A stretch of DNA of 64,000 bases from GCF_054482525.1 NZ_CM137006.1, one strand, 5' to 3'; shown: positions 13,410-54,112, numbered from the stretch's first letter. Made by a program: numbers and translations. The notes: generated from the letters alone by a model not told the origin.

Positions 13410-14208
13410 TACACGCTATTCCTTGTGCAATCAGGCCAGCTCGCAATAAAGGCAGCAACTATGCTTGAAGCCCCTTTCACCGCCGGATAAATAATATCCT
13501 TACGGCAATTGGTAACCGTATAAAATGCTTGATGTTTTGAACTGCCGTTGACGAAGATGAAGTAATCTGCTTTTTTGGCAGCATCCAATAACGCATCAAT
13601 GGCAACGCGATCATTGTTGAGCTCAATTCATAGCGCCGGATACAATTTCAATAAGGCGTCTTTACCACGTTGCGTGGCATTTTTGTAATACTGTAAAACA
13701 CCCGCTTTTTCCCGCGGAGATTCCGATACAACGGAGACGTTACGCTTGCTGGTATGGTTTCTGTCGGGAGGGTACTACCGATATCCTTACAAACGTAGAG
13801 CTGTTCCATCATGCGTGCCAACAACAGCATACGGATATCCAACCGTTCCCAGCGACGTAGGAACATCTCGCGAATGTTAATCCAGTACTGTAGTCGGCGA
13901 TCGCTATCACCAGATTCACAATCATAAAGAACCTCTGCAATATCAAGAGTATACTTGAGAATTTATGTCGATTCATTTTTCGTGCACAACATTTCGATAG
14001 CTTCGAGGGCATCATGGTATTCTTTGTGACTGAAGGTCCATGAAAGTAACGTATCCAGAATAATCCCTGTAGTTGCCAAAATGAGTTGATCACTACACAA
14101 TGATTTGTTTGTACAGAAGGAACGATTATTATATGTTCTTGTAGGGCAGAGCACGTTGCTACGGTAACAGCGTTGAAGATAATTTGGTCGAGACTGTAGT
14201 GGCCCAGT
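13397..14208 (-). pseudogene. 5'-truncated, frameshifted remnant of an unidentified gene at the island edge
   Basis: Four short minus-strand ORFs in at least three different frames can be chained into one reading. No convincing start. The 3' end overlaps the nanS stop by 13 nt. Confidence 0.45.
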
Positions 14209-14271
14209 TTAAAAGGTAGCAGAATTTTAAAAGTGTCAGGTGCATAGAATTAAAAAAATGGAACTATAAAA

Positions 14272-16005
14272 ATGGAAATCATGTTACCAAAAAACACCTT
14301 ATATGACAGAGAGCAAAATGTCTTTTTTGAAAAGGTTACGGCCTTAATTGGCGAAAATGGTGCTGGTAAGTCCTCGATTTTACAATCCGTATTTATTAAC
14401 TGTTTAACAAAAAAATATCTACCAGAAACAAAGGTTGTTTGTTTTTCTTCTGGACAAAATGAGAAATACTCAACGTACTTCTCTGATTATCTTTCTCATG
14501 AAAGGCAAGCAAATAGAGGTCTTAACTTAGATTGTTGTTATTACGATAAATCATGGTCAAAGTTACTAATATTCATATCCACAATTTGTAAATCAAATGG
14601 TCTTGTTAGAAATTTTTTATGTGAGAAAGGCTATATTGATGTATCAGATGATAAAAATGATGATATATCAAGCAAGCTTACATTGACGGTCCGAGTAAAT
14701 TCGGCTTACGTTAATCGAGTAAAAATGGCATTAGCACAAGAAGAACAAGGTATTGAAAATACTTTAAGGTATTCAGCTTATCATAGGACTTTAGAAAGTT
14801 TCATTAATAATATTGTTAATGCTGATTATGATTTCGAGTCTCCACTTGAAGCTCAAGAGATCTTGCTAACTCATTCAAATTTTTTCAATCCATCATTTGA
14901 GGAAGCAGAAGATTCCTTTTTTGATCCTATCATAACATTTTTCACTCAAGCAGCAGATAATGATTACTTTATAATAAAACCATCATTACAGCTAGAGTTT
15001 AAAAATAATATCGAACTGAATGATATTAGTGATGGGGAATATCAAGTACTCTTTTTATACTCTCTGCTTGATATTTTTGATAGTCCTAATACTTTATTCT
15101 TATTAGATGAGATAGATTCCCATTTACATTACAAGAATATTGAGCTCTTATGGCATCGACTACATAGTATTAATGGTTATGCGATAACAACCACCCATCT
15201 ATTAGACTCAATTACAGCTACTGATAATGATTTTAAAAACTTAAAGATTGTTGATAAAGGAAAAATAAAAGAAGATGATAAAATAAAAACTATAATAGAA
15301 CGTTTATCTGTCTTGACAAGAATATCAGACGTACAGTTCGAAGTGTGTCGTAAACTAGAAAACATAGTATTGATGGATGATTATAATGATTGGACTATTT
15401 TTTATGCCTTAGCAAAGAAAAAAGGACTTGATGTATCAAAGTTAGATGGCCTCCATGCAATAAAACAGTCCTCTGGTTACGATAATTTAAATCAAGAGTT
15501 CGCAAAACCAAAAATAGAGTGGATTAATTCGCTTTCAAATGTAAATACTGATAAGAAAGTCAAAAAAATATTCATGATCTGCGACAAAGATGAGGCTCCA
15601 ATTACCTATCAGAAAGATGGAGTTCAAGTCAATGGAAGTGAATATTCAAAACATATAGCGAAGTTAGAAAATAAAAACAAAAATAAAATATATCTCCTTG
15701 CTTGGAAAAGAAGAGAAATAAAAAACTACTTATTATCTTATACGGCATTGTCTCATCATGGATTTATCGGGCAAATAAACAATGGTGATCTGCCGGCTAA
15801 CAGTTATTTAAAAGAAAACAATCCTGGAGATAATTCAGCAATTAGCCGGCTTAATGTAAAACATTGCATCACAAAAATAATTGATTCTGATGGTATAGGA
15901 TTAGATATCTCAAAACTTTACTCATATATAGAACTTATACCACCTGCTGAGATCAGTGAAGATATAGTGAACATGTACAATTTTTTGGTGGAGAAATTAA
16001 AATGA
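14272..16005 (+). CDS. ABC-type ATPase fused to a C-terminal DUF4435/Toprim-like domain (OLD / PARIS AriA-AriB-like architecture)
   Basis: Walker A GENGAGKSS; signature-like SDGEYQ; Walker B LFLLDEIDSHLH; H-loop TTTH. C-terminal IVLMDDYNDW..FY, MICDKDE and KRREIKNYLL resemble DUF4435. Very AT-rich. Confidence 0.75.
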   Translation: MEIMLPKNTLYDREQNVFFEKVTALIGENGAGKSSILQSVFINCLTKKYLPETKVVCFSSGQNEKYSTYFSDYLSHERQANRGLNLDCCYYDKSWSKLLIFISTICKSNGLVRNFLCEKGYIDVSDDKNDDISSKLTLTVRVNSAYVNRVKMALAQEEQGIENTLRYSAYHRTLESFINNIVNADYDFESPLEAQEILLTHSNFFNPSFEEAEDSFFDPIITFFTQAADNDYFIIKPSLQLEFKNNIELNDISDGEYQVLFLYSLLDIFDSPNTLFLLDEIDSHLHYKNIELLWHRLHSINGYAITTTHLLDSITATDNDFKNLKIVDKGKIKEDDKIKTIIERLSVLTRISDVQFEVCRKLENIVLMDDYNDWTIFYALAKKKGLDVSKLDGLHAIKQSSGYDNLNQEFAKPKIEWINSLSNVNTDKKVKKIFMICDKDEAPITYQKDGVQVNGSEYSKHIAKLENKNKNKIYLLAWKRREIKNYLLSYTALSHHGFIGQINNGDLPANSYLKENNPGDNSAISRLNVKHCITKIIDSDGIGLDISKLYSYIELIPPAEISEDIVNMYNFLVEKLK

Positions 16006-17909
16006 ACACCTCTTTATTTGAAGATCTACTTACACTAATCAAGAAAAAGAGTTCGATAAGAAATACAGAGCAAGCAGTAGAGTTAATTTCATTATTTATT
16101 TTTTTACATTATATAAAATTATATCTTTATGAAAATGATAAAAGATTTTCAGATATAAAAAACATATCAAGCAACAACATTAATGAAATTAAATATTATT
16201 ACCAGCAACTATATGAAAGTTTTATTTTCTCGATAGATATAAAAAATATAAACCACGACATGCTTGAAAACCTCAGGAGTAAGATAGGTTTTTTAATTAA
16301 TAACATCAATGACCATGAAATAATTAAATATATAGATTATTCTATTTCGCAGATACATTCACTTACAGAATTCCATCAATATGCAAATTCTTATCAATCT
16401 TTAATTCTTAGGATGGTTAATGAATCGGGTCGTTCAGGTGAATATGTTACTCCATCTGCTTTAGTTCAGCTCATGGTTGAAATGTTATCACCTACAGATG
16501 GCACATCAATCTACGACCCAGCATGTGGAACTGGGGGTTTATTAATAGAGTCAGCACGATATATTAAAGGCAACAGTTTAAACAAAAACTTAAATTTAAA
16601 TTATTCCCTTATTGGTAATGACACATCATCATTTGCCTGTCTAATCTCAATTGTTAACCTTTTAATCAATAAAGAATTTAATTTTGAAATAATACTAAAA
16701 GATAGCTTAGATATAAATTATAAGAATAAAAAATATGACTTTGTTTTAACTAACCCACCATTTGGGAAAAAGAGCTGTTGGGATAATATTCATATTGACA
16801 CACATTATAAAGGACCTAATCTAGACTATTACTTCCTGGAGCATGTTATTGACTCTCTCGCTGTTAATGGCAAAGCAGCCATGATATTACCAGAGCGTTT
16901 TTTATATGATGTGAGTGAAGAGTGCATCACTCTTAAAGATAAGATCTTCCAAAATTATAATTTAGATTGTATTTTATCTATACCGTCAGGTGCATTGCTT
17001 CCTTACACTGCAGTAAAATTATGTATTCTTTTTATAAGTAATTCTGGCCCAACAGATAGAATATTTTTCTACAATTTAAATAATGGTGAAAAATACTCAC
17101 GTACAAATATTATAAAATTCGATGATTTTATAGATTTTTTAGAGTCAGCAAAAAATAGAACAATAACTGAACACTCCTGGATTATCAATATTAGTGATAC
17201 ACCTTCATCTTATAACTTACTCTTAAAAGATAAAGAGCGAAACTCATATGAGTTTCTTAGTGATTCTATAGTTAACATTGAACAGACAATACGTAATAAT
17301 GAATTATTACTAACAGAGTTGTCTTTATTAAGAGAAAAAATAGCAATCTTAGAGTCAACAATAAAAAATCATTCGCATGAATATGAATTTGAGAGACTTA
17401 AAGTTGGAAATATTGCAATAGTAAAATCCGGAAATTTATTACAAAAAAACAGGCTGTTACCCACTGGACCAATTCCTGTATACGGTGGAAATGGAGTTAT
17501 TGGATATAATAATGAAGCAATGGAAAATGGTGAAAATATTATTATTGGTAAGGTCGGAGCTCTTTGCGGAAACGTTCGGTATGTTCAAGGTGATATTTGG
17601 GTGACAAATAACTCATTAATTATTAAGAATTATTCACCAAATAAAGTTTTAACACCCTACCTTGCAAAATTATTATCTACTTTAAACTTAAGAAGGCTCG
17701 CCGTTGGTACCGCTCAGCAATATTTAACCACGACACAAATAAAAAATGTAGAAGTTAGTATTCCACCTTTAACGACCCAGTATAAATTAAATATTTGGCT
17801 TGATGAGTTAGATAATACGCTTGAACAATATAATAATCTCATTGAAAAAATAATGAATGATAAGCGAGAACTTAAAGAGAATTTGTATAAAGGTCTTTTA
17901 ATAGAATAG
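16002..17909 (+). CDS. N6-adenine DNA methyltransferase (HsdM-like) fused to a single HsdS-type target recognition domain
   Basis: Motif I DPACGTGGLLIE and motif IV TNPPFGKK. C-terminal ~200 aa resembles one HsdS TRD plus a conserved helix (GKVGALCGNV, WVTNNSLII, SIPPLTTQ). ATGA start/stop overlap with the upstream gene. Confidence 0.8.
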   Translation: MNTSLFEDLLTLIKKKSSIRNTEQAVELISLFIFLHYIKLYLYENDKRFSDIKNISSNNINEIKYYYQQLYESFIFSIDIKNINHDMLENLRSKIGFLINNINDHEIIKYIDYSISQIHSLTEFHQYANSYQSLILRMVNESGRSGEYVTPSALVQLMVEMLSPTDGTSIYDPACGTGGLLIESARYIKGNSLNKNLNLNYSLIGNDTSSFACLISIVNLLINKEFNFEIILKDSLDINYKNKKYDFVLTNPPFGKKSCWDNIHIDTHYKGPNLDYYFLEHVIDSLAVNGKAAMILPERFLYDVSEECITLKDKIFQNYNLDCILSIPSGALLPYTAVKLCILFISNSGPTDRIFFYNLNNGEKYSRTNIIKFDDFIDFLESAKNRTITEHSWIINISDTPSSYNLLLKDKERNSYEFLSDSIVNIEQTIRNNELLLTELSLLREKIAILESTIKNHSHEYEFERLKVGNIAIVKSGNLLQKNRLLPTGPIPVYGGNGVIGYNNEAMENGENIIIGKVGALCGNVRYVQGDIWVTNNSLIIKNYSPNKVLTPYLAKLLSTLNLRRLAVGTAQQYLTTTQIKNVEVSIPPLTTQYKLNIWLDELDNTLEQYNNLIEKIMNDKRELKENLYKGLLIE

Positions 17910-17915
17910 ATCACA

Positions 17916-17946
17916 GTAGCAGGGTGTCCACAATACACCCTGCTAC
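17916..17946. terminator. Bidirectional hairpin between convergent MTase-S gene and hsdR
   Basis: gtagcagggtg / caccctgctac: 11-bp perfect stem. Confidence 0.6.
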
Positions 17947-17989
17947 TGGTTGCAAGTAAGTTGCAATATCTGTACTGCTGAAGCTACGA

Positions 17990-20900
17990 TTAATAATGCT
18001 CCTCAATATACCCATACGCCTTCTGGAACAACTCTTTATCTTTCCCTAGTCCAAACTGGGCCAAGGTCAGCAAAAGCGCCTTTTGGATTTCGCGCGGGCC
18101 ACTGTTAGAATTTTGCCAGCCATCAAAGCGGGTAGCTTTCACAATTTTATCAATTTGCTCTACAACATCACCGATTAACTTAGGGGTAGTTTCCGGACGT
18201 GTTTCGAGGAAAAGCTTAGTCAACGCCTGTTTATTATCAGCTTCAGTTACTGGACGCTCGCCCGTTTCGCGCTCGGCTTGAACGGTATCTTTCGCTGCAT
18301 CCAACAGGCCTTTCAACCAGTCAATGGCCTTGATAACACCAGCTTCATAGTCCTGACGCAGTTTTTCAAGGCGCTCGCCCAATGCCACAAATTTAGGATC
18401 ATGACTGCCGCGCAAACGTCCCATAAGATCAATCTCCAGGCGTTTAGCACGTTGTTCCTGCTCTTTAGCGGTCAGGGTAAAAATAGCGTGCTCGTCCATG
18501 ACCAACTCGTCAATATCATCGCGAATACGATTGATATCAGTATGCTCATGGATCATCTTGATTGTTTCGGGGCCAAGGGCAGCCCAAACAAGCGCACCTG
18601 TCTGCCCTACCGGACGCACCGATTCATAAATTTGCGCCAGCCATTTATAGTCCTGACGATAAGGGGTCAAAAAAGGGTCTGGGTTGATAGCTGACCATAA
18701 CTTGGATAACACACCAAAGCTGGCAGCGAATTCATCGCGCTTCTCGTTGGTCGGCAGGCATTCCTGCGCGGCCATAATACCTTCAAAACCAGCTATGGAC
18801 CGATCCACACCAGGGAAGAAGGACAAACATTTATTCAGTTGTAACGGCAATAGCTCTTTAAATGCCTCAATTCCCTCTACAACTCCTTCAATTTCTTCAG
18901 GGTTATAGGCCAGAGCGGTACGCAGATTTTCGAAAACGCCGAGGTAGTCGATAATTAATCCCATGTCCTTGCGTACAGTATCGGTTTCGTACAGCCGGTT
19001 AGTTCGGCACATGGCCTGCAGAAGGGTATGATCGCGTAGAGGCTTATCGAGGTACATGCAGTAGCAAATCGGGGCATCAAAGCCCGTAAGCAGCTTGGCG
19101 GTTACGATAATAAGCTGTAATGGATATTCAGGATCTTTAAAGCACTCAATTAGATCCTTTTGCACCTGCTCTTCGGCATCGATGTGCTGCCAGCGTTCAA
19201 AATCGACTTGTTTGACAGGCAGCTCCAACTCATCATGCCATTTAAGCCAATCCTTGTTGAGCTTGTCTTTTTTGCCACCCTCTTCAACTTTAATCGGAGC
19301 CTGGTCAACGTTCATAACCACTTCAACTGCATCAAAACCAAGCTTTTCACCGAGCAAATAATACATCTGCACACAGGCTTCGCGATCGTATACCACAACC
19401 ATGCCTTTCATCTTTTTCGGCATAACATGGTTGGTAAAATGCTCAGCAATATCATTACTCACCGCAGCCATACGTCTGGGAGATTTCAGCATAATAGCCA
19501 GCTTGCCGGCACGTCTGGACAATGCTGCTTTTTCTTCTTCATCCAGGTTGTTTTCGGTAGCCAGTTGCTCGAACTCTTCATTGATGGCATCACGATCCAC
19601 TCGGAGTTCAGCCAGCCGAGGTTCGAACTTCACCGGGTTAGTTGCGCCATCCCGGATCGACTGCTTATAGCTATAGCGGCTCATATAGCGACCTGGATCT
19701 TCTTCGGCACCGAACAATTTGAACGTATTACGATCAATGCCAGAAATCGGAGTACCAGTCAGGCCATAGAAGTGGGCATTGGGCAACGCCCAGCGCATTT
19801 TCTCGCCTAATCCCCCTTCCTGTGTACGGTGAGCTTCGTCAACCAACACAATGATATTGTCCCGGTTGTTCAGGCCATTAGGGTTGCTATCGTCAATTTC
19901 GATATCTTTAAATTTAAAGATGGTGGTGATTAAAATGCCACGGCTGTCTTGTTCAATGTATTCACCCAACTTTTTGCAGCTTTGCACTTTAATCAGATTC
20001 TTAACGTCGGCTCCACCAAAGGTCTCGTTAATTTGGCTGTCCAGATCTCGCCGGTCCACAACGATAAGTACCGTCGGGTTTTTTAACGCATTATCGGCAC
20101 GTAGCATTTTGGCGGCGTAAAGCATCAACAAGGATTTACCCGATCCCTGGAAATGCCAAATAAGACCTTTTTTTGGATAGCCTCTGCGAACACGCTCAAC
20201 AATTTGTTTTGCAGCTTCAAATTGCGGATAACGCGGCAAGATTTTAACGCGTTTAGGTGGAGTATTTTTGCCCGTTTTGACGGTTGAAAATAATGCAAAA
20301 GATTCCAGTAACTGCAATAAGGTTTGCGGATTTAACAAACTCTCACAGCTATTGAGTACCGATGCCAGACCCGGCAAAATTTCATCACGAAGCTCAGTAT
20401 TATGCCAGGGTCCCCAGTCTTTAACTCGGGCATTAATGGCTCCATAGGCAAAGGTTTTACCTTCGCTGGCAAAGCACAGCAAGTTAGGTACAAAGAAAGA
20501 TTCAACATTTTTCCAGTAGTACTTTTTGCCACCCATGAAATCGGCAGCACCGTCTTGCCAGGTCACGCTGGGGCGTGTTGCGGTTTTAACTTCGCCTACT
20601 ACCAGTGGCATGCCGTTCACATAAAGAACAATATCAAAATAGACTTCAGTGGCCGCGATATAGTGAACCTGCTGCGCCACTACAAAGTGGTTGTTCTCTA
20701 TATTGTCAAAATCAATCAGATTGATGGTGATATGGTCGCCATTCTTACCAAAAGGCAAGGTTTTGTCGGCCATCAACCATTCCTGGAAGTTTTCATTGGC
20801 CTTTACCAAGCCGGTATGGCGGGCTTCTAAAACCACTCCTCGCAGTTTGTAAATGACCTCATCGGCATAGTCAGGCTGTCTGCCGATATCAGGGTTTAAC

Positions 20901-21052
20901 GAACAAAGCGCGTCTTTTAGCCACTCATCAACGAATATATCCTGCGCTTGTTTAGGCAGGTTTTCACCGTGGCAGTAAGTCCACTTGACTCCGCTTAAAC
21001 CTTTTAAACGGTCGATAATTCCATTTTCTGTGACGGTTTGTTCGTTAAACAT
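17990..21052 (-). CDS. hsdR: Type I restriction enzyme R subunit HsdR
   Basis: 1020 aa from MFNEQTV. PD-(D/E)xK-like DIVLYVNGMPLVVGEVK; helicase motifs QGSGKS and VDEAHRTQ. The start lies 1 nt after the hsdS stop. Confidence 0.93.
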   Translation of the reverse strand: MFNEQTVTENGIIDRLKGLSGVKWTYCHGENLPKQAQDIFVDEWLKDALCSLNPDIGRQPDYADEVIYKLRGVVLEARHTGLVKANENFQEWLMADKTLPFGKNGDHITINLIDFDNIENNHFVVAQQVHYIAATEVYFDIVLYVNGMPLVVGEVKTATRPSVTWQDGAADFMGGKKYYWKNVESFFVPNLLCFASEGKTFAYGAINARVKDWGPWHNTELRDEILPGLASVLNSCESLLNPQTLLQLLESFALFSTVKTGKNTPPKRVKILPRYPQFEAAKQIVERVRRGYPKKGLIWHFQGSGKSLLMLYAAKMLRADNALKNPTVLIVVDRRDLDSQINETFGGADVKNLIKVQSCKKLGEYIEQDSRGILITTIFKFKDIEIDDSNPNGLNNRDNIIVLVDEAHRTQEGGLGEKMRWALPNAHFYGLTGTPISGIDRNTFKLFGAEEDPGRYMSRYSYKQSIRDGATNPVKFEPRLAELRVDRDAINEEFEQLATENNLDEEEKAALSRRAGKLAIMLKSPRRMAAVSNDIAEHFTNHVMPKKMKGMVVVYDREACVQMYYLLGEKLGFDAVEVVMNVDQAPIKVEEGGKKDKLNKDWLKWHDELELPVKQVDFERWQHIDAEEQVQKDLIECFKDPEYPLQLIIVTAKLLTGFDAPICYCMYLDKPLRDHTLLQAMCRTNRLYETDTVRKDMGLIIDYLGVFENLRTALAYNPEEIEGVVEGIEAFKELLPLQLNKCLSFFPGVDRSIAGFEGIMAAQECLPTNEKRDEFAASFGVLSKLWSAINPDPFLTPYRQDYKWLAQIYESVRPVGQTGALVWAALGPETIKMIHEHTDINRIRDDIDELVMDEHAIFTLTAKEQEQRAKRLEIDLMGRLRGSHDPKFVALGERLEKLRQDYEAGVIKAIDWLKGLLDAAKDTVQAERETGERPVTEADNKQALTKLFLETRPETTPKLIGDVVEQIDKIVKATRFDGWQNSNSGPREIQKALLLTLAQFGLGKDKELFQKAYGYIEEHY

Positions 21053-21053
21053 T

Positions 21054-22241
21054 TTATATTTCCTTATCAATCATAGCTTGGCGCAGTTGAATAATTTTCC
21101 CCAAGGATTCATTGTGCCTATAAATATTCTCATACGAACACTTAAACGTATTAATGATTGATGCTTGAATATCGAAGGGAGGAATAGGAATTTGAATTTT
21201 TAAAAAGTTATCTTTATTTATTTTCTTCATACTTCCGCTAGTTCCAGCAGCAATACCTTGAATAGCTCGACGGCCATATGGAGACATCAGATAGTACATT
21301 AAAAACTCTTTTTTAATAAATTTTTCGTCAACAGCCAATCTCCACATCGTGTCTGGGAAAATCGTATTCCCATTGCCAGTCGATCCTTTATATTTTCCAA
21401 CTAAACCAACCAACTCCGCTGTATTAGAACGAGAGATTAACAAATCACCATCATTGCATGTTTTTCCTTTTAAAAAATGATCTTCTGTAATATTTTTTAA
21501 AGTAGTTTCTCTGAATCCTGATTTCGACAAACTATTTAGGTTCAGGACATAGTACCCAGTCCCGACTGCGGTTTCAACAGGAGAATATCCCCCTTCTGGA
21601 GAATCAATTAAAACATCTTTAATAGAACCAAAAGTCCATCCAACCGGAAGAGGAACACATTTATTCTCCCTCGAATCAAAGTAGTTATCAAAAGTCCGTA
21701 GACCAATAGCATATAATAATCTTTTAGCTGCTTTGAGAGCACTTAAATATAGAAGTTCTTTCTTTGCTAACGAATCAAAGATTATTAATGACGAGTATTG
21801 CTGTTCAATGCTCGGTATATTAACTTCTAGTTTATTTAAATCACTCCATTTTATTCGCGATGATAGCGAGCCGGCGGAATTTGCAATCACCTTTTCCATA
21901 AAAGAGGTTGATTGCATCAAGTGGGGTAAGTACCCATCCAATAAGTAGTTGTTTTTCCTTGGTTTAATTACCATTGCATCAGCAGAGCAAATACCATTAA
22001 TAGGGCTCACCGACACCCTTTTTAAATATGTATTTCGTCTACTAAAAATTATTTCGCCACACTTTACCTTAAAGGCTTGTGTTTTCAATTCAACGTCAGC
22101 CCCCCAATCATGAACATAAAAATAACCAGATTTCAAATGTTCCAACCCAATAAAATGCTTAGCATCGTCGCTTGTTGGGGAGATTCTAACCATAACCTGT
22201 TCAGCAAGATCACCAAATGTAACATTTCTTTTATTATTCAT
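21054..22241 (-). CDS. hsdS: Type I R-M specificity subunit HsdS (two TRDs)
   Basis: 395 aa from MNNKRNVTFGDL. Two TRD-like halves separated by a helical spacer. AT-rich. Overlaps the hsdM stop. Confidence 0.88.
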   Translation of the reverse strand: MNNKRNVTFGDLAEQVMVRISPTSDDAKHFIGLEHLKSGYFYVHDWGADVELKTQAFKVKCGEIIFSRRNTYLKRVSVSPINGICSADAMVIKPRKNNYLLDGYLPHLMQSTSFMEKVIANSAGSLSSRIKWSDLNKLEVNIPSIEQQYSSLIIFDSLAKKELLYLSALKAAKRLLYAIGLRTFDNYFDSRENKCVPLPVGWTFGSIKDVLIDSPEGGYSPVETAVGTGYYVLNLNSLSKSGFRETTLKNITEDHFLKGKTCNDGDLLISRSNTAELVGLVGKYKGSTGNGNTIFPDTMWRLAVDEKFIKKEFLMYYLMSPYGRRAIQGIAAGTSGSMKKINKDNFLKIQIPIPPFDIQASIINTFKCSYENIYRHNESLGKIIQLRQAMIDKEI

Positions 22242-23739
22242 TATTATATTTCTCTCTATCAATTTCATAGCCAATGCTATCCAAGCTATCAAACAATACC
22301 TTGATATTTCTTTTGAGTTTTACGCTACTGACTTTCCATGATTCGATAGCATGCTGAATATCATTCATTTTGACATTGTTTTGAGATTTCACATAAAGTG
22401 AAATCGATAAATTATAGAAATTTTCTTTAATAGCTTCGATATCCACTAAAGCGGTTATGTCGTTTTTTTTCTCCGGATTAAAATAAGCCTCGCATAATAC
22501 TTCCAAATCATCATCAGATAGGCGACTATGGGCACGTTCACGGGTAACATACTCAACCCCGTTGATAAACAAAACCTTATTTTTGCGTTCAGCAGGTTTA
22601 TTGCAATTAAGCACCACCAAGCAAGATTCCATCGGCGAGTTGTAAAACAGATTTGGTCCCAAACCAATCACCGCTTCGATTATGTCGGATTCAATCACCT
22701 GTTTACGAATGGCTTGTTCAGAATCACGGAACAGTACACCATGCGGCCAGAGCATGGCAGCACGACCGGTGTCGGGTTTTAAACTTTTGATTATATGGGT
22801 ATAAAACGCATAATCAGCACAACCTTGTGGAGGCACGCCATAGAGATTACGCCCATAGGGATCGGCTGCAAACTTGTCACGATTCCATTTCTTAATGGAG
22901 TATGGTGGGTTAGCAAAAATCACATCAAACTGCTTGAGCCGATCGTTTTCAATAAACTTTGGCTCAGCCAAAGTATCACCACGCAGCACATCAAACTCTT
23001 CAATATCATGCAGGAACATATTCATACGAGCAATAGCGGAAGTCAGCAGGTTCACTTCCTGACCATAAAGGTGCACAGAGCGCCACTCTTCTCCTCTTGC
23101 ACGAAGATCCATCACTGCATTTAGCAACATCCCTCCAGTGCCACACGTTGGATCATAGGCTGTTTCACCCGGTTTTAAGCCCATAATGCGCGTCATTAAA
23201 TGCACGACTGTTCGGTTGGTGTAGAACTCTGCTGCCGTATGACCGGAATCATCAGCGAACTTTTTAATCAGGTATTCGTAGGCCTCACCAAGATCATCCT
23301 GAGCGACAGATTTAATACCGAGCGGTATTTTACTGAAATGTTCAATCAGATCAGCCAGCAGATGATCGGGCAGGCGCTCTTTATTGGTCCACTGCGCATC
23401 ACCGAAGACGCCATGTAAACGCGGATTATTGGCTTCAATTAGTCGAAGCGCATTCTGGATCGCTTCACCAATGTTTTTACTGGTATTGCGTACCTTTTCC
23501 CAACTGGCTTCAGAGGGAATATTGAAACGGTGAAACATCGGCATGGCGGCATATTCAGCATCACCTTCATGGAGTTCCAGCGCTTCGTTATATTCTTCCA
23601 GATAGACATCTGACAGGCGTTTGTAAAACAGCAACGGGAAGATATACTGCTTGTAGTCTGATGCGTCAATTTGGCCACGAAGAAATTCGGCGGCTCCCCA
23701 GAGCAGCTCTTCCAGCTTTTTATTACTCATAGTACTCAT
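22234..23739 (-). CDS. hsdM: Type I R-M methyltransferase subunit, distal paralog (HsdM-2)
   Basis: HsdM N-terminal domain; EFYTNRTVV; DPTCGTGGML; ANPPYSIKKW. ATGA overlap with the upstream hsdM paralog. Confidence 0.9.
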   Translation of the reverse strand: MSTMSNKKLEELLWGAAEFLRGQIDASDYKQYIFPLLFYKRLSDVYLEEYNEALELHEGDAEYAAMPMFHRFNIPSEASWEKVRNTSKNIGEAIQNALRLIEANNPRLHGVFGDAQWTNKERLPDHLLADLIEHFSKIPLGIKSVAQDDLGEAYEYLIKKFADDSGHTAAEFYTNRTVVHLMTRIMGLKPGETAYDPTCGTGGMLLNAVMDLRARGEEWRSVHLYGQEVNLLTSAIARMNMFLHDIEEFDVLRGDTLAEPKFIENDRLKQFDVIFANPPYSIKKWNRDKFAADPYGRNLYGVPPQGCADYAFYTHIIKSLKPDTGRAAMLWPHGVLFRDSEQAIRKQVIESDIIEAVIGLGPNLFYNSPMESCLVVLNCNKPAERKNKVLFINGVEYVTRERAHSRLSDDDLEVLCEAYFNPEKKNDITALVDIEAIKENFYNLSISLYVKSQNNVKMNDIQHAIESWKVSSVKLKRNIKVLFDSLDSIGYEIDREKYNNE

Positions 23740-25235
23740 ACCTCGAACCCTTCTTTGATAAGCAGGGCCTCCAGCTCCTCTTCTGCTTTTTCCAGCTCAG
23801 CCAGCTTCCGTTGAAAATCTTTGAGCGCCTCTTCCACAGTGATGGTTTCTTCTTCGAGTGGCTTTTGCACATAACGAGCAATATTTAGATTGAAGTCATT
23901 TTCTTCAATCTCCTTCAGAGGAACCCAGCGTGCAACGCCTTCGATTTCTTTTGCATCTGGCCCTTGTTGCGCCTGGTCATGATAGATTTGGTATATTTCA
24001 TCGGCCTGCTTGTTGGACAGCGTATTCTGCGCACGTCCCTTGGTATAGATTTCTTCAGCATTGATGATCAATACATGATCTTTATGCGCGGCCGGACGTG
24101 ATTTACGCAGCACCAAAATACACGCAGGAATCCCAGTTCCATAGAACAGGTTGGAAGCAACACCAATAATCGCCACAATGCGATTCTCTTGCAGTAATTT
24201 GGTTCGAATTGCCCCCTCTGCGCCGCCACGAAACAGCACACCATGAGGTAATACGACTGCCATACGTCCATTGTCGTTAAGTGAAGCAAACATATGCTGC
24301 ACCCAGGCAAAATCACCATTTGTTTTAGGCGCCAGGCCATATTGCTTACGGCCATAGGGATCGTTCGACCACAGATCGTATCCCCATTCTTTTAAGCTAA
24401 ACGGTGGGTTGGCAACAACGCAGTCAAAGGTTTCTAAACGATCGCTTTTTAAAAATTTAGGTTCGCGTAAAGTATCCCCTCGGACAATATCGAAATCTTC
24501 CTGTCCATGCAGGAACAGATTCATACGCGCAATAGCTTCCGTCGTTAAGTTCTTTTCCTGACCCTTGATTTTTAGTAAACGCGGATCACCACCATTTTCT
24601 TTTACATGGTGGATGGTCTCAAGCAGCATACCACCGGTACCACAGGCGGGATCGTAGACACTCTCACCGGCTTTTGGATCAAGAATGTTAACCATCAAAC
24701 GAACGATAGTTCGTGGGGTATAGAACTCACCTGCTTTCTTATTGGCTTTGTCTGCAAAGCGTTTGATCAGATACTCGTATGCGCGCCCCATATCATCGTC
24801 ACGGACACTAGAAACGCCAAGGTTCACCTTATTGAAGTGATTGAGTAACGTAGCCAGTAACTCATCAGAAAGGCGTTCTTTATTGGTCCAGCTGGCATCG
24901 CCAAAAATGCCATGCAGTTTAGGGTTTGCCAGTTCTATACCACGGAAGGACTCTTTTAAAGCCTGACCGATGTCCTTGGTCTCAGCGAAAACATCGCGCC
25001 AGTGGCAATTTTCAGGTATCTGAATACGGTGAAACATCTTGCCCTTGGCAAGCTCTGCATCCCCAACGCTCTCCATCGCATCAGCAAATTCTTCGTCATA
25101 CACGTCACAAATGCGCTTGAAGAACAAGATGGGGAAAATGTACGTTTTGTAATCTGACGCATCAATGGGCCCTGTAATAATATGGGCTGCATGCCATAGA
25201 TGGGCCTCGAGATCTTTTAGGTTAATCAGTGTCAT
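23736..25235 (-). CDS. hsdM: Type I R-M methyltransferase subunit, proximal paralog (HsdM-1)
   Basis: 499 aa from MTLINLKDLEAHLWHAA; EFYTPRTIV; DPACGTGGML; ANPPFSLKEW; C-terminal coiled coil. The ORF-track extension was trimmed. Confidence 0.9.
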   Translation of the reverse strand: MTLINLKDLEAHLWHAAHIITGPIDASDYKTYIFPILFFKRICDVYDEEFADAMESVGDAELAKGKMFHRIQIPENCHWRDVFAETKDIGQALKESFRGIELANPKLHGIFGDASWTNKERLSDELLATLLNHFNKVNLGVSSVRDDDMGRAYEYLIKRFADKANKKAGEFYTPRTIVRLMVNILDPKAGESVYDPACGTGGMLLETIHHVKENGGDPRLLKIKGQEKNLTTEAIARMNLFLHGQEDFDIVRGDTLREPKFLKSDRLETFDCVVANPPFSLKEWGYDLWSNDPYGRKQYGLAPKTNGDFAWVQHMFASLNDNGRMAVVLPHGVLFRGGAEGAIRTKLLQENRIVAIIGVASNLFYGTGIPACILVLRKSRPAAHKDHVLIINAEEIYTKGRAQNTLSNKQADEIYQIYHDQAQQGPDAKEIEGVARWVPLKEIEENDFNLNIARYVQKPLEEETITVEEALKDFQRKLAELEKAEEELEALLIKEGFEV

Positions 25236-25478: not shown

Positions 25479-26296
25479 TTGGCGCAAAATGGCGGCATTT
25501 ACTCATTTCTCCATCGGAGCATCTTACGCGCTATAACCACTCTCGTTTTTTCCTATTCCCATGCAGATGAAGCACTACGCAATGAACTTGAGAAGCATCT
25601 CTCCCCGCTGAAGCGAACCGGGAAGATCACAACATGGCACGATCGCCGCATCGTTCCTGGTCAGGAGTTCGAACGTCAGATCGACCACTATTTTTCGCAA
25701 GCAGATATCATCCTGATCCTGATCCTGATCCTGATCAGCAGTGACTTTATTGCTTCTGATTACTGCTATCAGGTAGAGATGAAAAACGCACTGGAACGGC
25801 ATGACCGGGGCGAGGCGGTGGTCATTCCGGTAATTTTAAGAAACTGTGCATGGCATCAGTTATAATTCGGCAGCATTATGGCGGCGACTATCGACGGTAA
25901 ACCCATCACTAAGTTTGCCACCCACGATGAAGGCTACGTTCAGGTCGTCGAGGCCGTCTCGCGTGCCATTGCCCGGATGGAAGCCAAAAAACTACAGCAA
26001 ACCATACATATCCCTTCACCGGCTCCGGCGAATCCGATCTTTTAGGGAGTAGATTCCGTTTTTACACCGCGTTCAAGCAACCTTACTCTATCTGTTATAG
26101 CCAGGATAATGTTGTTCGAAACAGTATTAACGAAATTGTAAGCCTTGCTGATAACGGCCAGACTCTTGGTTTTCGTGCTCTGATGGGAGGCTTCAGTCGT
26201 GGAACTTCACGAGACGAACTATTGACCAATGAAGGTATGTCGGAACATCTCTGGGAAATGTTCTTCGGGCTAATCAAGCAAAGAATGTCCCGATAA
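25479..26296 (+). pseudogene. Disrupted TIR-domain protein gene
   Basis: TIR signature VFSYSHADEALRNELEKHL...SSDFIASDYC...VIPVILRNCAW. In-frame TAA at 25863 and TAG at 26043. The likely ATG at 25489 is out of frame. The C-terminal part (..ADNGQTLGFRALMGG..KQRMSR*) is readable only in frame +2. Confidence 0.8.
25710..25736 (+). repeat. Hexanucleotide tandem repeat (atcctg x4.5) inside the TIR gene
   Basis: atcctgatcctgatcctgatcctgatc, translated ILILILILI within a conserved TIR strand. Confidence 0.95.
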
Positions 26297-26480: not shown

Positions 26481-27476
26481 TCATGCAGGCAAATACGTTT
26501 TCTTAAGCGGCACCAACAGCTTAGTTTCAATATCCACCTGCTCATAGTTTTCCACTAACGCGCGTACCAAATCGTCCAGCGTCCATAGCGTCAACGGGAT
26601 TGTAGAACGATCGGCCTCATAACGCGCATCCTTGCTGAATCCGCCGGTACTAACATACAGCCCGCGATCGTCTTTATGACGGCCACCGATAAAGCTACGG
26701 ATTTGCTGGCTGCTCATCTGTTCCCGCCGGTGCTTCACCTCAACAATAATGCGCGGATTTTCAAACCCAAATCCGTCAGGCGAAGCAATGATGTCTTTCC
26801 CACGGTCAGCACCCGCAGGCGATACCTGAGTTTTATATCCCATGCTGCGTAACACGCCAGCGACCAGATTCTGCATCTCATCCCAGTCGAGACGGTTGAT
26901 ACGATCCTTGATGCCTTCAAAAGCGATCATTTCCATGTCGCGCAGAGGATTAGAAACGACCTCATCCTCTTCACCTGAAACAGGTACTTCCGGCACGATA
27001 TCTGAGACAGGCTTATTGCCCTGCACTAATTCATTCACAGCAAAATCAGGCACCTGAAAAACTGTCAGCGTTGAACCAAGGGTGTTTCTGGTTGCATCAC
27101 TCAGACTATCGCGCTTAATCTCTTCCGCATTCCACTTCACTTTACGGGCGATGCCCATGCCATCTTCAAGCCACTCGGCATGAAACTCAAAATCTGACGC
27201 TATTTTCCCTATTAAATAGGTCCGATTAGAAGGTGAATAAGTGATAGCCCAGTCGCCTTTCTGCATTTCATTCACAAAGCGCCAGACCTGAGAAGCTCCA
27301 GAACGAACTGTGCCTGGCTTAGTCTGTGGCTCAAGCTCCTGATACCGGGTAAACAACTGCTCTCTTGAGCATCCAGGTTTCACATAGGGAGCGAGCTGCG
27401 ACCAACCAATTGCAACAACCTGTTTGTCTCTGAAGTCGTCGTACAATTTTCCGCCATCACCGCGGATCATCCACAT
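26481..27476 (-). CDS. Mrr-like (type IV) restriction endonuclease with N-terminal uncharacterised domain
   Basis: C-terminal Mrr_cat-like block (RGKDIIAS...IIVEVKHRRE..STGGFSKDA). Start chosen at MWMIRGDGGKLY; the ORF-track extension overlaps the upstream gene. Confidence 0.8.
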   Translation of the reverse strand: MWMIRGDGGKLYDDFRDKQVVAIGWSQLAPYVKPGCSREQLFTRYQELEPQTKPGTVRSGASQVWRFVNEMQKGDWAITYSPSNRTYLIGKIASDFEFHAEWLEDGMGIARKVKWNAEEIKRDSLSDATRNTLGSTLTVFQVPDFAVNELVQGNKPVSDIVPEVPVSGEEDEVVSNPLRDMEMIAFEGIKDRINRLDWDEMQNLVAGVLRSMGYKTQVSPAGADRGKDIIASPDGFGFENPRIIVEVKHRREQMSSQQIRSFIGGRHKDDRGLYVSTGGFSKDARYEADRSTIPLTLWTLDDLVRALVENYEQVDIETKLLVPLKKTYLPA

Positions 27477-27597: not shown

Positions 27598-30500
27598 CTA
27601 AACCTGACGCCTCTCAAGACTATTATAAATAGCCTCAATTTCACCTTTCAGGTTATCACCAGAGTAAACCATCGATGTATCGTATCGTTCATATCGCGCT
27701 TCCCGTGTCGCACTAAACCAGTTGAACGATCCCACGCATAGCAAACCATCATCACCAATAACAATTTTGCTATGAACACGGTTTACCAGCTTTGTAGCAA
27801 TACCCAGCGCATTCAGTTTCTCCAGCGCCGCTTTAAGGTTCTGCTGCTTCTCTTTTCGCTTCTCAAAATCTTTATGTTCAGTGTTGTAGCTTCTGTCAGT
27901 GACTATCGTGACGTTAATACCACGTGAACACGCCGCAATCATGGAATCAAGAAAACCCGTTTGCTCCAGCTTTTGCCAGGTCAGCCATGGAGAAACTATC
28001 GTGATGTGTTTATCGGTATTTTCAAACGTCTGATTCAGGAAATTATCATGCTGCTCCACACCATGGAGTGTGTAGATTTTGGTCTCGGAAGTTTTTAAAT
28101 CCTTACGCTCTTTATAATCAAAAGAGAGCGCATTCTTCTCGGACTCAAAGAGATATTTTGCCAGTAATCCCCGCGGAGATGAGGGAGGCTGGATCTCAAA
28201 CAGATCCATATCGCCGAAGACCAGGAAGCTATCCTTCGCACGGGAGACTGCAACATTCAGCATGCTGTTATCGCTATCAATAAACCCGCCATCTTCATGT
28301 TTTGAATAGACTGGCGAGAATATAACAATCGCTCTTTCCGCTCCCTGAAGAGAGTGCACGGTGCCCACGGTGAGCGACTTTTCATTCGCGCCCGTACTGA
28401 TACCTTGTTTACCCAGCGCCTGTTTGATAGTGGATACCTGCGCGCTAAAAGGCGTCACGATACCGACAACTTCATGAAGCGATTTGCCGTAATGCGCTTC
28501 AATATTTTGCTGGTTCTCTGCCAACCAGGCCGCTATCGTTTCAGCCTCAAGCAAATTATATCTACTTCCACTACTTGCCAGCTCTCCTTTACCATCAATA
28601 TGGAGATAACCCATTGCGGGCATTAAATTGCTCTCTTCGCGCCCTCTTTTAGGCAACAACTTACCGTGATAGCAGAGCGTATTACAGTATCCAATAATAT
28701 TATCGAAGCACCGGCGGTGTTCATATAGGTACATACCACGAGCCAGTTCGGGATCATATTGATAGCGCGAAGCAAACTGCGCTATTTTCATAACGCTGCC
28801 AGATGCGGCACTTTTACCAAGGTCTGCGATTGCCGTATATTTCTCGGTAATCTCTTCTTGCGTACTGCCAGACAGAATTTTTTCCGCAAGCATGTTACCG
28901 ACATCAATCGCGGGAGCAATACTCCATATTGGCGGGATCTGCTCCGTATCGCCAATCACTAATGCCTTCTTAGCTAATGCAAACGAGGCAGCAGCCACTT
29001 CAGGAAGCACCTGCCCGGCTTCATCGACAATGAGTAAATCGGCAAAATCATACAAATAACTTTTCTCGAATTTACGTTGTCCTTTGTGCTCACTTATCTG
29101 CATATTGCCGGGCAGCATATAGCATGTCATCACCACACATGGAGTGAGTTTCATTCGACGTTGCCAACGGGCGGTTACCCCTTTAGCGCCTTTTTTCTTC
29201 TTCTCTTCCTGCAGATCATCAATTCTGGCCATATCCATCAGCCAACGACCTTCCCAGTAGTGAGTCGTCAGTAAAAATGCAGGGAAGCGAATCTGCGTAT
29301 CAGCCAGTTCATCGGCCTGTGAGAAGCTCAGTTCCTCGTCGCCCTCATACCCTAAATCAAATGCCAGCCTCTGCCACTCCTGAACCGCCTGCTGTTCTTT
29401 AAGAACGATTTCATGGGCGGAGTCAATCTGCTGCCGGTATGTTGTTTGCTCGCGCTCAGCGGAATTGAGCAGCCCATCAATATTACGTTCGATAGTTTCA
29501 GGATCAGACCACTGATTTCCTGCAATCAGCGCGCCTAATTTATCTTCGAGAAACAACTGTATTTGGTACTGTCGCTTACTACGAACCGCTGGGAGCCAGG
29601 AAAATAATGAATAGATCAGTGATTCACCGGCGCGATATTTTTTCCATTCCGTTTTAGCACTCTTCAGTAGAGTGACTTTTTGTTCTTGTCCGGAAAGTAA
29701 TTTATTTAAATTATCGAGATATTGCTCAATGTCGTTAGCAATAAGCTCACGCGCAGCCCGTACCTGGCTTAACGTTTGCCATGTTGCGTTCAGTCTTATC
29801 AGTTGCTCGGATTTTGCTGCCAACTGACCATGCAGGAGTTCAATGACCTTTTCAGGGGATGAACACTCTTTTTCAGGAAAAGCTGCCTTAGCTTTCTCGA
29901 GATAAAACAGCAGTGCATCCTCTACATACTCTTTTGACTCAACCTGGTTGAAGAAATCTTCAGTTTGATATTTTTTGGCTGCCTCAGCTTTACGAGTGCT
30001 TGAGGGAAAATAAGCGCCGAAGCTTTTCAGCTCTGGCAACCATCGTCCGGCCATCGCACCTGAACCTTGCGAAAAGTCTTTCCCGAATGCCTCAATAATG
30101 TTCGTTACAGCCTGGTTATTCGTTGAAGTCGCGATAATAACCGGAGGCTCAGATTTTTCGAGAGCTGCTCTGGCCCACTGCGTGGCGATGATAGAAAGCA
30201 CCAGCGTGGTTTTTCCGGTTCCCGGAGGTCCATTAACAGCAAGGATATCGCCATGTCTTGCATCCAGAAAATGGCTTAAGGCATCGCGCTGAGCCTTTGC
30301 CAGCGGAAACTTATCTCCGGAGTGTCCAAGCCTGTCGCTGAATTTTGCTCCTGGAGCCAGCAAAGACTCTGCAGCATGAACCTCTCGCGAGGCGAAGCGA
30401 TTGAAGAGCGGCACATCCTTCTTGCAAACAAGCAGGTGATCATAAAGAGAAAGGATATGGAAACTGGCACCGCCAGATTGCGCCGTTTTAACAATATAAC

Positions 30501-31113
30501 CGTGCTCAGCGAGTTCATATTGCTCAGGATTTTTAATCCAGTCGCCGGCAACGTTCTTCAGCAGCCTCTCTGAATCATCCAGATATTGATGCCACTCCTG
30601 CTGCAAGGCTGCATATCGTGCTTCCCGTTCTTCATCCGTTTCGGCAGTCTTATCAATGCTGTCATCAAAGTTGATAGAGAACGAGGTATGGATTGTCTTG
30701 TATTTGTCATACTGCCCAATCTCACCAATCGAAAATGCTCCTTTTGGCAAAGGTTCAAGCAGGTCTCTGGGAATGGAGGTCGCTGGCGTCGGATATAAAA
30801 AACCCTCACGGCTGAGCAAGGCTGGCGTCACTAGCGGGGTAACAATATCAGGTGCGCCTGCGGAACGGTCCTTACCATGCTGCAGTAACCGAAAATAAAC
30901 TTTTGGGCGCAAGACGACATCGACCGTTTCGACATCGTCTTTTTCTCCCTCAAAAAATTTACTGACAATCGCTTCGTCAAGACGTCCCGCCGCTATCCCA
31001 TGCCAGTGAGTGAAATTTTTGGCGTCTTTCCGTTCAAAACTGCCCTTTCCTGACTCAGCATCCGCAAGCGAGTTGCGCCAGTATGAGGCAAACCCTAAAG
31101 CATTTTCATCCAT
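27598..31113 (-). CDS. SF1 (DNA2/NAM7/COG1112-like) helicase with C-terminal PLD-family nuclease domain; type II Mokosh-like architecture
   Basis: Walker [10 protein letters not shown]; LIVDEAGQV; [17 protein letters not shown]-terminal single HKD motif HSKIVIGD plus GSFNW. 1171 aa. Confidence 0.85.
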
Positions 31114-49738: not shown

Positions 49739-49930
49739 AAAAATTCCCTGAATTAAAAAATCCATTGATATAATTTATAGATACAGACAGTAAAATGTTC
49801 TGCCACGTTACAATACTCTTATCAGTAATAGGCTGGCAAAAACTTTATTGCTTTATAAGACGCTTGCGCACGTAAGAAGAGAGTGGTATTAAACAAATGT
49901 ATAATTACTTTATTTTTATTGGGTTAAACT

Positions 49931-50434
49931 ATGAATAACATTGCGCCGCAATCACCTGTAATGCGTCGCCTGACGCTGCAGGATAATCCTGCTATCGCCC
50001 GCGTCATTCGTCAGGTATCCGCCGAATACGGTCTTACCGCTGATAAAGGCTACACCGTCGCCGATCCGAATCTTGACGAGCTGTATCAAGTGTATAGTCA
50101 GCCTGGCCATGCATATTGGGTGGTTGAGTACGAGGGTGAAGTGGTCGGCGGCGGTGGGATTGCACCATTAACCGGGAGTGAGTCGGACATTTGCGAACTG
50201 CAAAAGATGTATTTTCTTCCGGCTATTCGCGGTAAAGGGCTAGCGAAAAAACTGGCCTTAATGGCGATGGAGCAGGCACGAGAGATGGGCTTCAAACGCT
50301 GCTATCTGGAAACGACCGCTTTTTTAAAGGAAGCCATTGCGCTTTATGAGCATTTGGGCTTTGAGCATATCGACTATGCGCTTGGCTGCACGGGCCATGT
50401 CGATTGTGAAGTGCGGATGCTACGCGAACTCTAA
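49931..50434 (+). CDS. yjgM: GNAT-family acetyltransferase YjgM
   Basis: 167 aa; acetyl-CoA motif RGKGLAKKL. Confidence 0.9.
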
Positions 50435-52062: not shown

Positions 52063-52078
52063 TTGATATCGCTATAAA

Positions 52079-52110
52079 GATGCCGGGAAATACAAAAACA
52101 TCCCGGCATC
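52079..52110. terminator. Bidirectional hairpin (argI / yjgL)
   Basis: gatgccggga...tcccggcatc. Confidence 0.7.
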
Positions 52111-52118
52111 ACATTATT

Positions 52119-53990: not shown

Positions 53991-54112
53991 GACGAACTCC
54001 TTGAGTTAATAAGAACGTCTAAGCATTACAAATTTTACTCACAAAAAAATATCAAAAAACGCTCTTTTCACAAACTCGCCGTAAACCTGGAGTTATTTAC
54101 GGCGAAAAGTCA

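Follow-up and report, generated by a model that had tools for sequence, protein, structure and literature searches.

What is a gene for an OLD-like ATPase with a putative nuclease domain doing in tandem with a fused type I-like DNA methyltransferase, next to a type I restriction-modification (R-M) system that is already complete? We address this question for a two-gene cassette in an Escherichia coli chromosome (GCF_054482525.1, NZ_CM137006.1), analysed within a stretch of 64,000 nucleotides (hereafter the window, with positions counted from its first letter), where a 577-residue 'AAA family ATPase' (gene 1, WP_000404909) is followed by a 635-residue 'N-6 DNA methylase' (gene 2, WP_001097954; both names from RefSeq). 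Comparison across genomes strongly supports the two genes as a conserved unit, and the explanation that we favour, to which we give roughly an even chance, is that they may form a guard-decoy abortive-infection module directed against the anti-restriction proteins of phages and plasmids, by analogy with PrrC, PARIS and Ronin. An earlier note, made from the DNA of the window, had proposed the pair as an undescribed system and offered two readings of it: an R-M system in which an OLD/Toprim ATPase replaces the restriction subunit HsdR, or a PARIS-like sensor in which a methyltransferase-specificity (M-S) module serves as bait.

Gene pair, architectures and distribution

Both open reading frames (ORFs) are present at the positions given in that note, as is the ATGA stop/start overlap between them (Table 1), which points to translational coupling of the two genes. 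One genome per species was scanned, which gave 55 loci; 51 of these extend past the ATPase gene, and in all 51 the next gene, on the same strand, encodes an N6 methyltransferase (MTase), which answers the question of co-occurrence across genomes that the note had raised. The gap between the two frames lies between -14 and +6 nt in the 50 intact ORF pairs, that of the window included; each of the 19 M-S fusions overlaps its ATPase gene, by 1-14 nt, and in the type I operons described below (architecture A) hsdM starts at -1 to +6 nt from the end of the ATPase gene, most often at +2 or +3. At the level of clades, the trees of the ATPase and the MTase agree, and the pairing spans gamma-, beta- and epsilonproteobacterial genera.

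Clustering of the neighbouring genes, together with Pfam, defined the architectures in which the pair occurs. In architecture A (~31 loci, ATPase of ~598 residues), the order is hsdR, ATPase, hsdM, hsdS and variable cargo, with an HsdR of ~770 residues that combines ResIII and EcoEI_R_C, an HsdM that carries HsdM_N and an HsdS with two target recognition domains (TRDs); in 27 loci, the operon is a bona fide type I operon in which hsdR and hsdM flank the ATPase gene. Clade B1, made up of the window and 7 further loci, has the ATPase followed by an M-S fusion of ~635 residues with the motif NPPFG, and clade B2 (11 loci) has the same layout with a degenerate motif IV. Six B pairs (L005, L034, L039, L040, L042 and L047) lie directly downstream of a PacII-family hsdM1-hsdM2-hsdS-hsdR set and within one operon with it, at a gap of -1 to +6 nt between hsdR and the ATPase gene, and those of the window, Tatumella and Salmonella are convergent with such a type I system. 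Others stand alone, among them the B2 copies of Psychrobacter, which are found among housekeeping genes with no HsdR within 7 kb and indicate that the pair can function by itself.

The N-terminal part of the gene 1 product was described earlier as an ABC/OLD-type ATPase, and every motif quoted for it is present: Walker A (GENGAGKS), the Q-loop, the signature LSDGEYQ, the Walker B/D-loop LFLLDEIDSHLH and the H-loop TTTHLLDS, all unchanged in the 50 homologous loci of clades A, B1 and B2. Pfam matches are AAA_21 (4.5e-13) and SMC_N and no others, and the PADLOC model of AriA (1e-14) covers the ATPase part alone. An AlphaFold2 (AF2) model built with 30 homologs has a predicted local distance difference test score (pLDDT) of 87.6, and its best Foldseek matches in the PDB, at more than 600 columns each, are GajA, the Thermus OLD protein (TsOLD) and the OLD effector of retron Eco8, with PtuA also among the top matches.

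For the C-terminal part, the earlier label of DUF4435/Toprim holds at the level of fold and motifs and fails at that of hidden Markov models. Modelled alone, the domain reaches a pLDDT of 92 and matches two OLD C-terminal regions with Foldseek probabilities of 0.94 and 0.85. Three motifs are kept in 50/50 homologous loci, xD(D/H)xxDW after strand 1, ICDxDE after strand 3 and WxRREIKxYL, and they contain the putative metal-binding residues D369 and D373 (MDDYNDW), D438 and D440 (ICDKDE) and E482 (WKRREIKNYL). The DUF4435 label itself lacks profile support, because the C-terminal 262 residues match no Pfam family at E<=10, with DUF4435 also absent from the scan of the whole protein, and because a 30-sequence profile of the gene 1 family, compared with the sequences in the PDB, matched ATPase motifs and nothing else. 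With moderate confidence, and on the strength of the predicted fold and these motifs, we assign this region to a divergent Toprim of the OLD/DUF4435 type with an invariant Asp in place of the usual Glu; the invariant acidic Toprim and RREIK motifs argue that it is probably an active nuclease.

The cassette occurs in 102 of 5,426 complete E. coli genomes, always on the chromosome and at an identity of at least 96.8%. Orthologs are found in Salmonella, Enterobacter, Cronobacter, Serratia, Klebsiella, Snodgrassella, Vibrio and others, and the family extends to Pseudomonas, Acinetobacter and many marine gammaproteobacteria. Homologs of gene 1 are present in 4 plasmid records and in none of 50,697 phage records. 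Salmonella carries the same six-gene block as the window, the locus of S. Abony CFSAN001275 being one example.

Broken copies of either gene were also seen. In a few E. coli genomes (H53, H54, H62 and H80), gene 2 is interrupted or split into separate HsdM and S ORFs, which suggests occasional frameshift or decay with gene 1 still annotated as intact. Conversely, the ATPase gene is fragmented and the MTase gene remains in two loci, L051 and L053, from Leclercia (architecture A) and Pseudoalteromonas shioyasakiensis (B2), which are possible examples of effector loss.

The methyltransferase-specificity fusion

The gene 2 product begins with a variable region (residues 1-120), which is followed by the N6-adenine MTase core of gamma class (121-400). 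A linker helix (401-460) leads from the core to the only TRD, which is of the HsdS type (461-600), and a helix (601-635) forms the C-terminus. The earlier assignment to a gamma-class MTase with a single HsdS-like TRD is borne out by Pfam, which finds N6_Mtase (3.5e-42) and one Methylase_S (2.1e-15) and no HsdM_N domain, by PADLOC (MTase_I 1e-63, Specificity_I 4e-26), and by the presence of both DPACGTGG and NPPFG, so that motifs I and IV are intact.

Gene 2 aligns end to end (residues 8-614, E 4e-86) with chain A of PDB entry 7EEW, a 638-residue 'type I restriction-modification system methyltransferase subunit' that has GVPF instead of NPPF and belongs to clade B2. The B2 fusions of loci L041 and L042, both of which lie directly after an ATPase-Toprim gene, share 82-85% identity with this protein. 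The entry also contains Ocr of phage T7, which means that a member of the fusion family has been crystallised bound to a DNA-mimic anti-restriction protein. We take the protein to be the 'minimal intact methyltransferase' of Vibrio vulnificus YJ016, for which Seo et al., in 2022, reportedly described an (M1S1/2)2 dimer that has S-adenosylhomocysteine (SAH) bound and holds Ocr in its TRD cleft; the paper on 7EEW is not known to discuss the upstream ATPase-nuclease gene. By homology with this structure, the gene 2 product is probably an (M-S)2 dimer that mimics the M2S1 core of a type I methyltransferase.

The two B clades differ in their catalytic motifs. In B2, NPPF of motif IV is replaced by G[IVL]PF or SVPI in 10/11 loci, with an unambiguous local alignment, and in a library of 1.84 billion proteins, 11 of the best 24 full-length 50%-identity representatives lack the Asn (G/A/T/H-[IVLAP]-P-F), whereas the type I HsdMs in the B2 fusions' own operons keep NPPY or NPPF. 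In B1, NPPFG and motif I, which binds S-adenosylmethionine (SAM), are invariant in 52 cluster representatives, down to 33% identity.

The fusion TRD is at least as conserved as the catalytic core and shows no diversification; in B1, TRD identity is 44-59% at an overall identity of 33-48%. In architecture A, the median identities are 86% for HsdR, 71% for the ATPase, 89% for HsdM and 31% for HsdS, which is the usual hypervariable S subunit. Set against its ATPase, the fusion MTase has median identities of 34% vs 59% in B1 and 44% vs 58% in B2, and a real HsdM 90% vs 72%. As judged from these identities, rates are inverted in the fusions: their MTase changes more quickly than the ATPase beside it, and a real HsdM more slowly.

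The ortholog of gene 2 in S. Abony, M.SenAboORF8720P (633 residues), is 79% identical to it, and that of gene 1 is 89% identical. In the methylome of this strain, obtained by single-molecule real-time (SMRT) sequencing, every observed motif was assigned to other enzymes, and M.SenAboORF8720P was left unassigned (PMC4393132); the curators of REBASE had, in 2015, flagged the 633-residue fusion as 'unlikely to be part of' the adjoining PacII-family type I system. With no motif assigned to a close ortholog and a sister clade degenerate, methylation by gene 2 appears not to be the point of the system.

A candidate guard-decoy module and the alternatives

Under the guard-decoy reading, the gene 2 product would dimerise through two long helices into an (M-S)2 complex that copies the DNA-binding core of a type I MTase, as the homology with 7EEW suggests, and the gene 1 product, made in stoichiometric coupling, would stay latent while bound to it, in keeping with the strict synteny, the overlap and the co-phylogeny of the two genes. 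Ocr or ArdA, deployed by the invader against the adjacent PacII-type system, would occupy the TRD groove of the bait, upon which the ATPase would switch state and release or activate the Toprim nuclease. By analogy with PrrC/EcoprrI, PARIS and Ronin, this nuclease would then cut tRNA or DNA, and the infected cell would stop.

The probable guardee is the neighbouring system (Table 1). Its M1 and M2 score 984 and 982 bits to M1 and M2 of PacII (PDB 7VRU, chains A and B), and it is close to SenAboIII of Salmonella in HsdR and M1 (98% identity each) and distant in HsdS (28%). Systems of the PacII/SenAboIII family place N6-methyladenine in one half-site and N4-methylcytosine in the other, and with its HsdS only 28% identical to that of SenAboIII, the E. 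coli copy should recognise a different site. The M1M2S complex of PacII is bound and inhibited by Ocr and ArdA (PMC9613975).

Several points weigh against this reading. The 7EEW complex would demonstrate capability rather than function, because any type I-like MTase is bound by Ocr, which is also commonly used to aid crystallisation. The strict conservation of NPPFG and the SAM motif across B1 argues that the clade of the window may still depend on SAM binding, on the chemistry of the adenine pocket or even on methylation, and the result in S. Abony comes from one strain in one condition, in which low expression could explain the missing motif. The analogy with PARIS is inexact, because AriA senses Ocr itself, without a methyltransferase.

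The alternative that survives best, which we nevertheless consider unlikely, is a genuine R-M system of new composition, at least in clade B1, in which (M-S)2 would methylate a symmetric bipartite site and the ABC-ATPase/Toprim protein would replace HsdR; this corresponds to the first reading of the earlier note. It would account for the catalytic and SAM motifs kept in 52/52 B1 representatives and for the tight translational coupling, which is typical of R-M genes, and it is compatible with the existence of stand-alone pairs without a nearby HsdR and with the AhdI-type systems, in which type I-like M/S modules serve a nuclease other than HsdR. It sits poorly with a 79%-identical Salmonella ortholog that has no assigned motif though both genes are present, with a fusion TRD that, unlike the HsdS of architecture A, never diversifies, and with the coexistence of the ATPase with HsdR in architecture A (~30 loci); moreover, B2 has lost the catalytic Asn while retaining the nuclease, a combination that would be lethal for an R-M system. 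These same observations disfavour a replacement of HsdR as the earlier note had framed it.

That the M-S protein acts as a reader in a type IV-like modification-dependent or sequence- or structure-sensing system, and so licenses the Toprim nuclease to attack foreign DNA, appears improbable to us. The DNA feature read would be a fixed one, for instance a phage-specific site or a modified adenine, and would be flipped into a pocket that has no catalytic role. In favour of this, the conserved TRD implies one constant target, the B2 pocket is degenerate while the SAM loop is kept, and autonomous two-gene islands occur. We found no precedent for an HsdM-like reader, the B1 pocket still looks catalytic, and the strong linkage to Ocr-sensitive type I systems would be left unexplained. 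Slightly more doubtful still is an accessory or regulatory role, in which the ATPase-Toprim protein would be no toxin and would serve methylation or the neighbouring type I enzyme, as an ATP-driven loader or activator or in restriction alleviation. MANTIS offers a precedent, in that its ATPase MtsA is required to load the defence MTase, and the ATPase is embedded in type I operons in architecture A; the invariant acidic Toprim and RREIK motifs, the pairs without an R-M system nearby and the catalytically degenerate MTases of B2 speak against it. Finally, a chance meeting of a decaying orphan methyltransferase with a solitary OLD-like nuclease, conceivable in that unrelated genes pile up in defence islands and that gene 2 is split or degraded in a few E. 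coli genomes, is effectively refuted by synteny, given the 51/51 adjacency, the overlapping or near-abutting frames and the congruent trees.

Returning to the guard-decoy reading, the comparative data favour the second reading of the earlier note, a sensor with an M-S bait as backup for the type I system next door, over the first, and the analogy with PARIS is not an exact one. More tentatively, at somewhat less than even chances, we propose that the family as a whole records a transition from guardee to decoy, with one OLD-type ATPase/Toprim guard in three settings: a working type I HsdM/HsdS (A), a catalytic-looking but silent M-S bait (B1, the window) and a dead pseudo-methyltransferase bait (B2, 7EEW). 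The cassette of the window would then be a nuclease-armed 'integrated decoy' that detects DNA mimics aimed at its PacII-type neighbour.

Relation to named systems and genomic setting

The PADLOC 2.0 run that had been suggested for the pair, together with NCBIfam, returned weak partial matches only (AriA, mad2/mad3, PtuA, GajA, AbiLi and restrict_AAA_1, the last at 34 bits vs a cutoff of 300 bits) and no named system. Literature searches on the two WP accessions and on ATPase-Toprim proteins with HsdM/S systems found no description, and neither WP_000404909 nor WP_001097954 is present in the DefensePredictor paper and its supplements. Judged on its sequence features, the cassette falls outside each named system while sharing their checkable features.

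The nearest precedent in layout is PrrC, an ABC-type NTPase fused to a nuclease that is encoded inside EcoprrI (type Ic), held latent by the R-M proteins and released by Stp of phage T4. The cassette shares the combination of an ABC NTPase with a putative C-terminal nuclease, and architecture A is positionally equivalent; unlike in PrrC, this domain is Toprim-like rather than HEPN, as Pfam, NCBIfam and PADLOC matched neither a PrrC nor a HEPN family to the cassette, and the partner in the window is a dedicated M-S fusion rather than a working R-M enzyme. PARIS combines the ABC ATPase AriA with AriB, a DUF4435 Toprim protein (fused AriAB forms exist), and is triggered by Ocr or other anti-restriction proteins, upon which tRNA is cleaved. 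Membership in PARIS was rejected, as AriA matches at 1e-14 on the ATPase only, AriAB at 2e-6 over 57 residues (239-295) and no DUF4435 model matches; PARIS also needs no methyltransferase, and the cassette family was never seen without one.

Ronin, from strain ECOR55, consists of RonA, HsdS and HsdM without HsdR and is triggered by Ocr, ArdA and Aop1; its NPPF motif is dispensable, it is linked to other R-M or BREX systems, and its authors speak of decoy immunity (bioRxiv 10.1101/2023.04.06.535777). The likeness is that of a type I-derived module without HsdR that acts as a decoy for Ocr, ArdA and Aop1, a feature of Ronin that we propose for the cassette. The effector of Ronin is a 61-residue membrane peptide and its HsdM and HsdS are separate, whereas the cassette would use a 577-residue ATPase-nuclease and a fused M-S protein with a single TRD. 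No ronA-like small ORF was seen beside the cassette by eye among ORFs of at least 30 residues in 13410-14300, an inspection made without transmembrane prediction or homology search.

With OLD, GajA, retron Eco8 and HEC-04, an ATPase-TOPRIM fusion embedded in defence systems (Payne et al.), gene 1 shares the arrangement of an N-terminal ABC ATPase and, as far as the predicted fold tells, a C-terminal Toprim in one polypeptide, and OLD, GajA and Eco8 are its top full-length structural matches. In contrast to these proteins and to Gabija, sequence similarity is confined to the ATPase motifs and the obligate partner is a methyltransferase; neither a GajB helicase nor a retron partner is found at the cassette, where no helicase is adjacent. 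Gabija was rejected accordingly (GajA models match at 1e-7 on short stretches, and no GajB UvrD-like helicase is adjacent), and HEC-04, though a similar fusion, is absent among the best 25 PADLOC matches listed. More generally, OLD-type ABC ATPases with Toprim partners are widespread as anti-restriction-triggered backup effectors inside BREX and R-M-like loci.

Further candidates fared no better. For MADS (mad1-8), the NCBIfam model of MAD2 scores 59 bits vs a cutoff of 720, mad3 of PADLOC covers 78 residues, and the cassette has two genes vs eight; MANTIS/Gao_RL differs in its four genes, which include those for an AAA+ ATPase and a helicase-nuclease, and the VPI-2 type I system with embedded TgvAB is unrelated. 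The cassette is also no type I R-M system in itself, as the unit has no HsdR, no HsdM_N and one TRD, and the neighbouring HsdR belongs to a separate, complete PacII-type system on the opposite strand; the cassette usually lies beside a PacII-family R-M system or shares an operon with one, as it does in many genera besides that of the window, but these are complete systems of their own. The protein of 7EEW is of the same family as gene 2, with a single TRD and without HsdM_N; unlike gene 2, it belongs to the clade with a changed motif IV and has been described as a type I methyltransferase.

The earlier description of the pair as undescribed is consequently right in part: no named system matches in PADLOC 2.0, NCBIfam or the literature, but the M-S family is represented in 7EEW, REBASE had flagged its Salmonella member, and the logic of guards and decoys triggered by anti-restriction proteins is established (PrrC, PARIS, Ronin and the OLD-ABC backup modules in R-M/BREX loci). 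What appears to be new is a fused ATPase-Toprim effector obligately coupled to a type I methyltransferase module, its stand-alone two-gene form with a fused single-TRD M-S protein, and a whole clade with a pseudo-methyltransferase partner. If the guard-decoy reading is correct, the family would be the second case, and a widespread one, in which decoy immunity makes use of a type I methyltransferase, set apart from Ronin by its enzymatic ATPase-nuclease effector and by a natural series that leads from a working enzyme to a bait that is a pseudo-enzyme. The reading would change the interpretation of 7EEW and of annotations as 'N-6 DNA methylase' and 'AAA family ATPase' in their hundreds, would explain a motif-less orphan in REBASE, and would predict that phages and plasmids carrying Ocr or ArdA are aborted in ~2% of E. 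coli genomes and many Salmonella serovars. As it comprises only two genes and a structure of a partner with Ocr exists, the cassette is a tractable model for the coupling of an ABC-ATPase sensor to its bait and, being common in enterobacteria with a bait-Ocr crystal structure at hand, it is worth experiment.

Table 1. Features of the cassette and its surroundings, in window coordinates
Feature	Position	Strand	Evidence or remark
Cassette leader and promoter region, ~175 bp	14098-14271	+	Conservation with Salmonella (73%) and Tatumella (84%)
Gene 1	14272-16005	+	RefSeq
Gene 1, N-terminal OLD-type ABC ATPase domain (~residues 1-350)	14272-15330	+	Pfam, PADLOC, AF2, Foldseek
Gene 1, C-terminal divergent Toprim-like putative nuclease domain and helical extension	15331-16005	+	Predicted fold, conserved motifs
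ATGA stop/start overlap of genes 1 and 2	16002-16005	+	GGAG just 5' of the overlap
Gene 2, M-S fusion	16002-17909	+	RefSeq, Pfam, PADLOC, match to PDB 7EEW_A
Hairpin, 14-bp perfect stem	17914-17948	none	Between convergent gene 2 and hsdR
PacII-family non-canonical type I R-M system, hsdM1-hsdM2-hsdS-hsdR	17990-25235	-	RefSeq, Pfam, 7VRU scores
Frameshifted TIR-domain gene	25533-26296	+	RefSeq annotation; intact in Salmonella at the same position
Restriction endonuclease and adjacent 1171-residue AAA protein	26481-27470, 27598-31113	-	RefSeq annotation alone
HNH endonuclease gene	31885 onward	-	RefSeq annotation alone

Over the 5 kb compared, the window is 100% identical to the chromosome of E. 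coli PCN033. The cassette lies in a defence island directly after nanC-nanM-nanS (RefSeq annotation) and, as noted earlier, stands out as an AT-rich block, with a GC content of 0.29-0.33 in 14-18 kb against 0.44-0.48 in the flanks. Its leader is the sole upstream stretch conserved with Salmonella and Tatumella and contains a sigma-70-like site at 14156-14183; an Rfam search of leader and cassette matched nothing credible. The strong hairpin reported after gene 2 was recovered as well: its 96-nt fold has a dG of -36.3 and a z-score of -5.2, and none of 200 shuffles folds equally well. It is probably a bidirectional terminator; the plus strand has no T-run.

Between nanS and the leader, ~680 bp of unannotated DNA (13420-14097) occur in exactly the 102 complete E. 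coli genomes with the cassette and are not conserved in Salmonella or Tatumella. Salmonella has an HNH gene at the equivalent position, and the possibility that the stretch is a remnant of this gene was rejected for want of similarity.

In the type IB-like operons of architecture A (L008-L050), a variable slot after hsdS holds different cassettes, including a 672-residue protein without a Pfam match, a three-gene set with products of ~375, 150 and 675 residues, a pair of 380 and 586 residues, a 453-residue protein and others, and looks like a hotspot for extra defence cargo. The E. coli form of architecture A, seen in draft assemblies (L061 and L062) and without a match in the 5,426 complete E. 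coli genomes, is part of an element that also carries resolvase, RhuM, MobI and DUF927 primase-like genes and looks like a mobilisable genomic island. Elsewhere in the window, which is otherwise ~50% GC, two more AT-rich blocks (49000-50000 and 52000-54000, GC 0.31-0.36) are probably other horizontally acquired segments.

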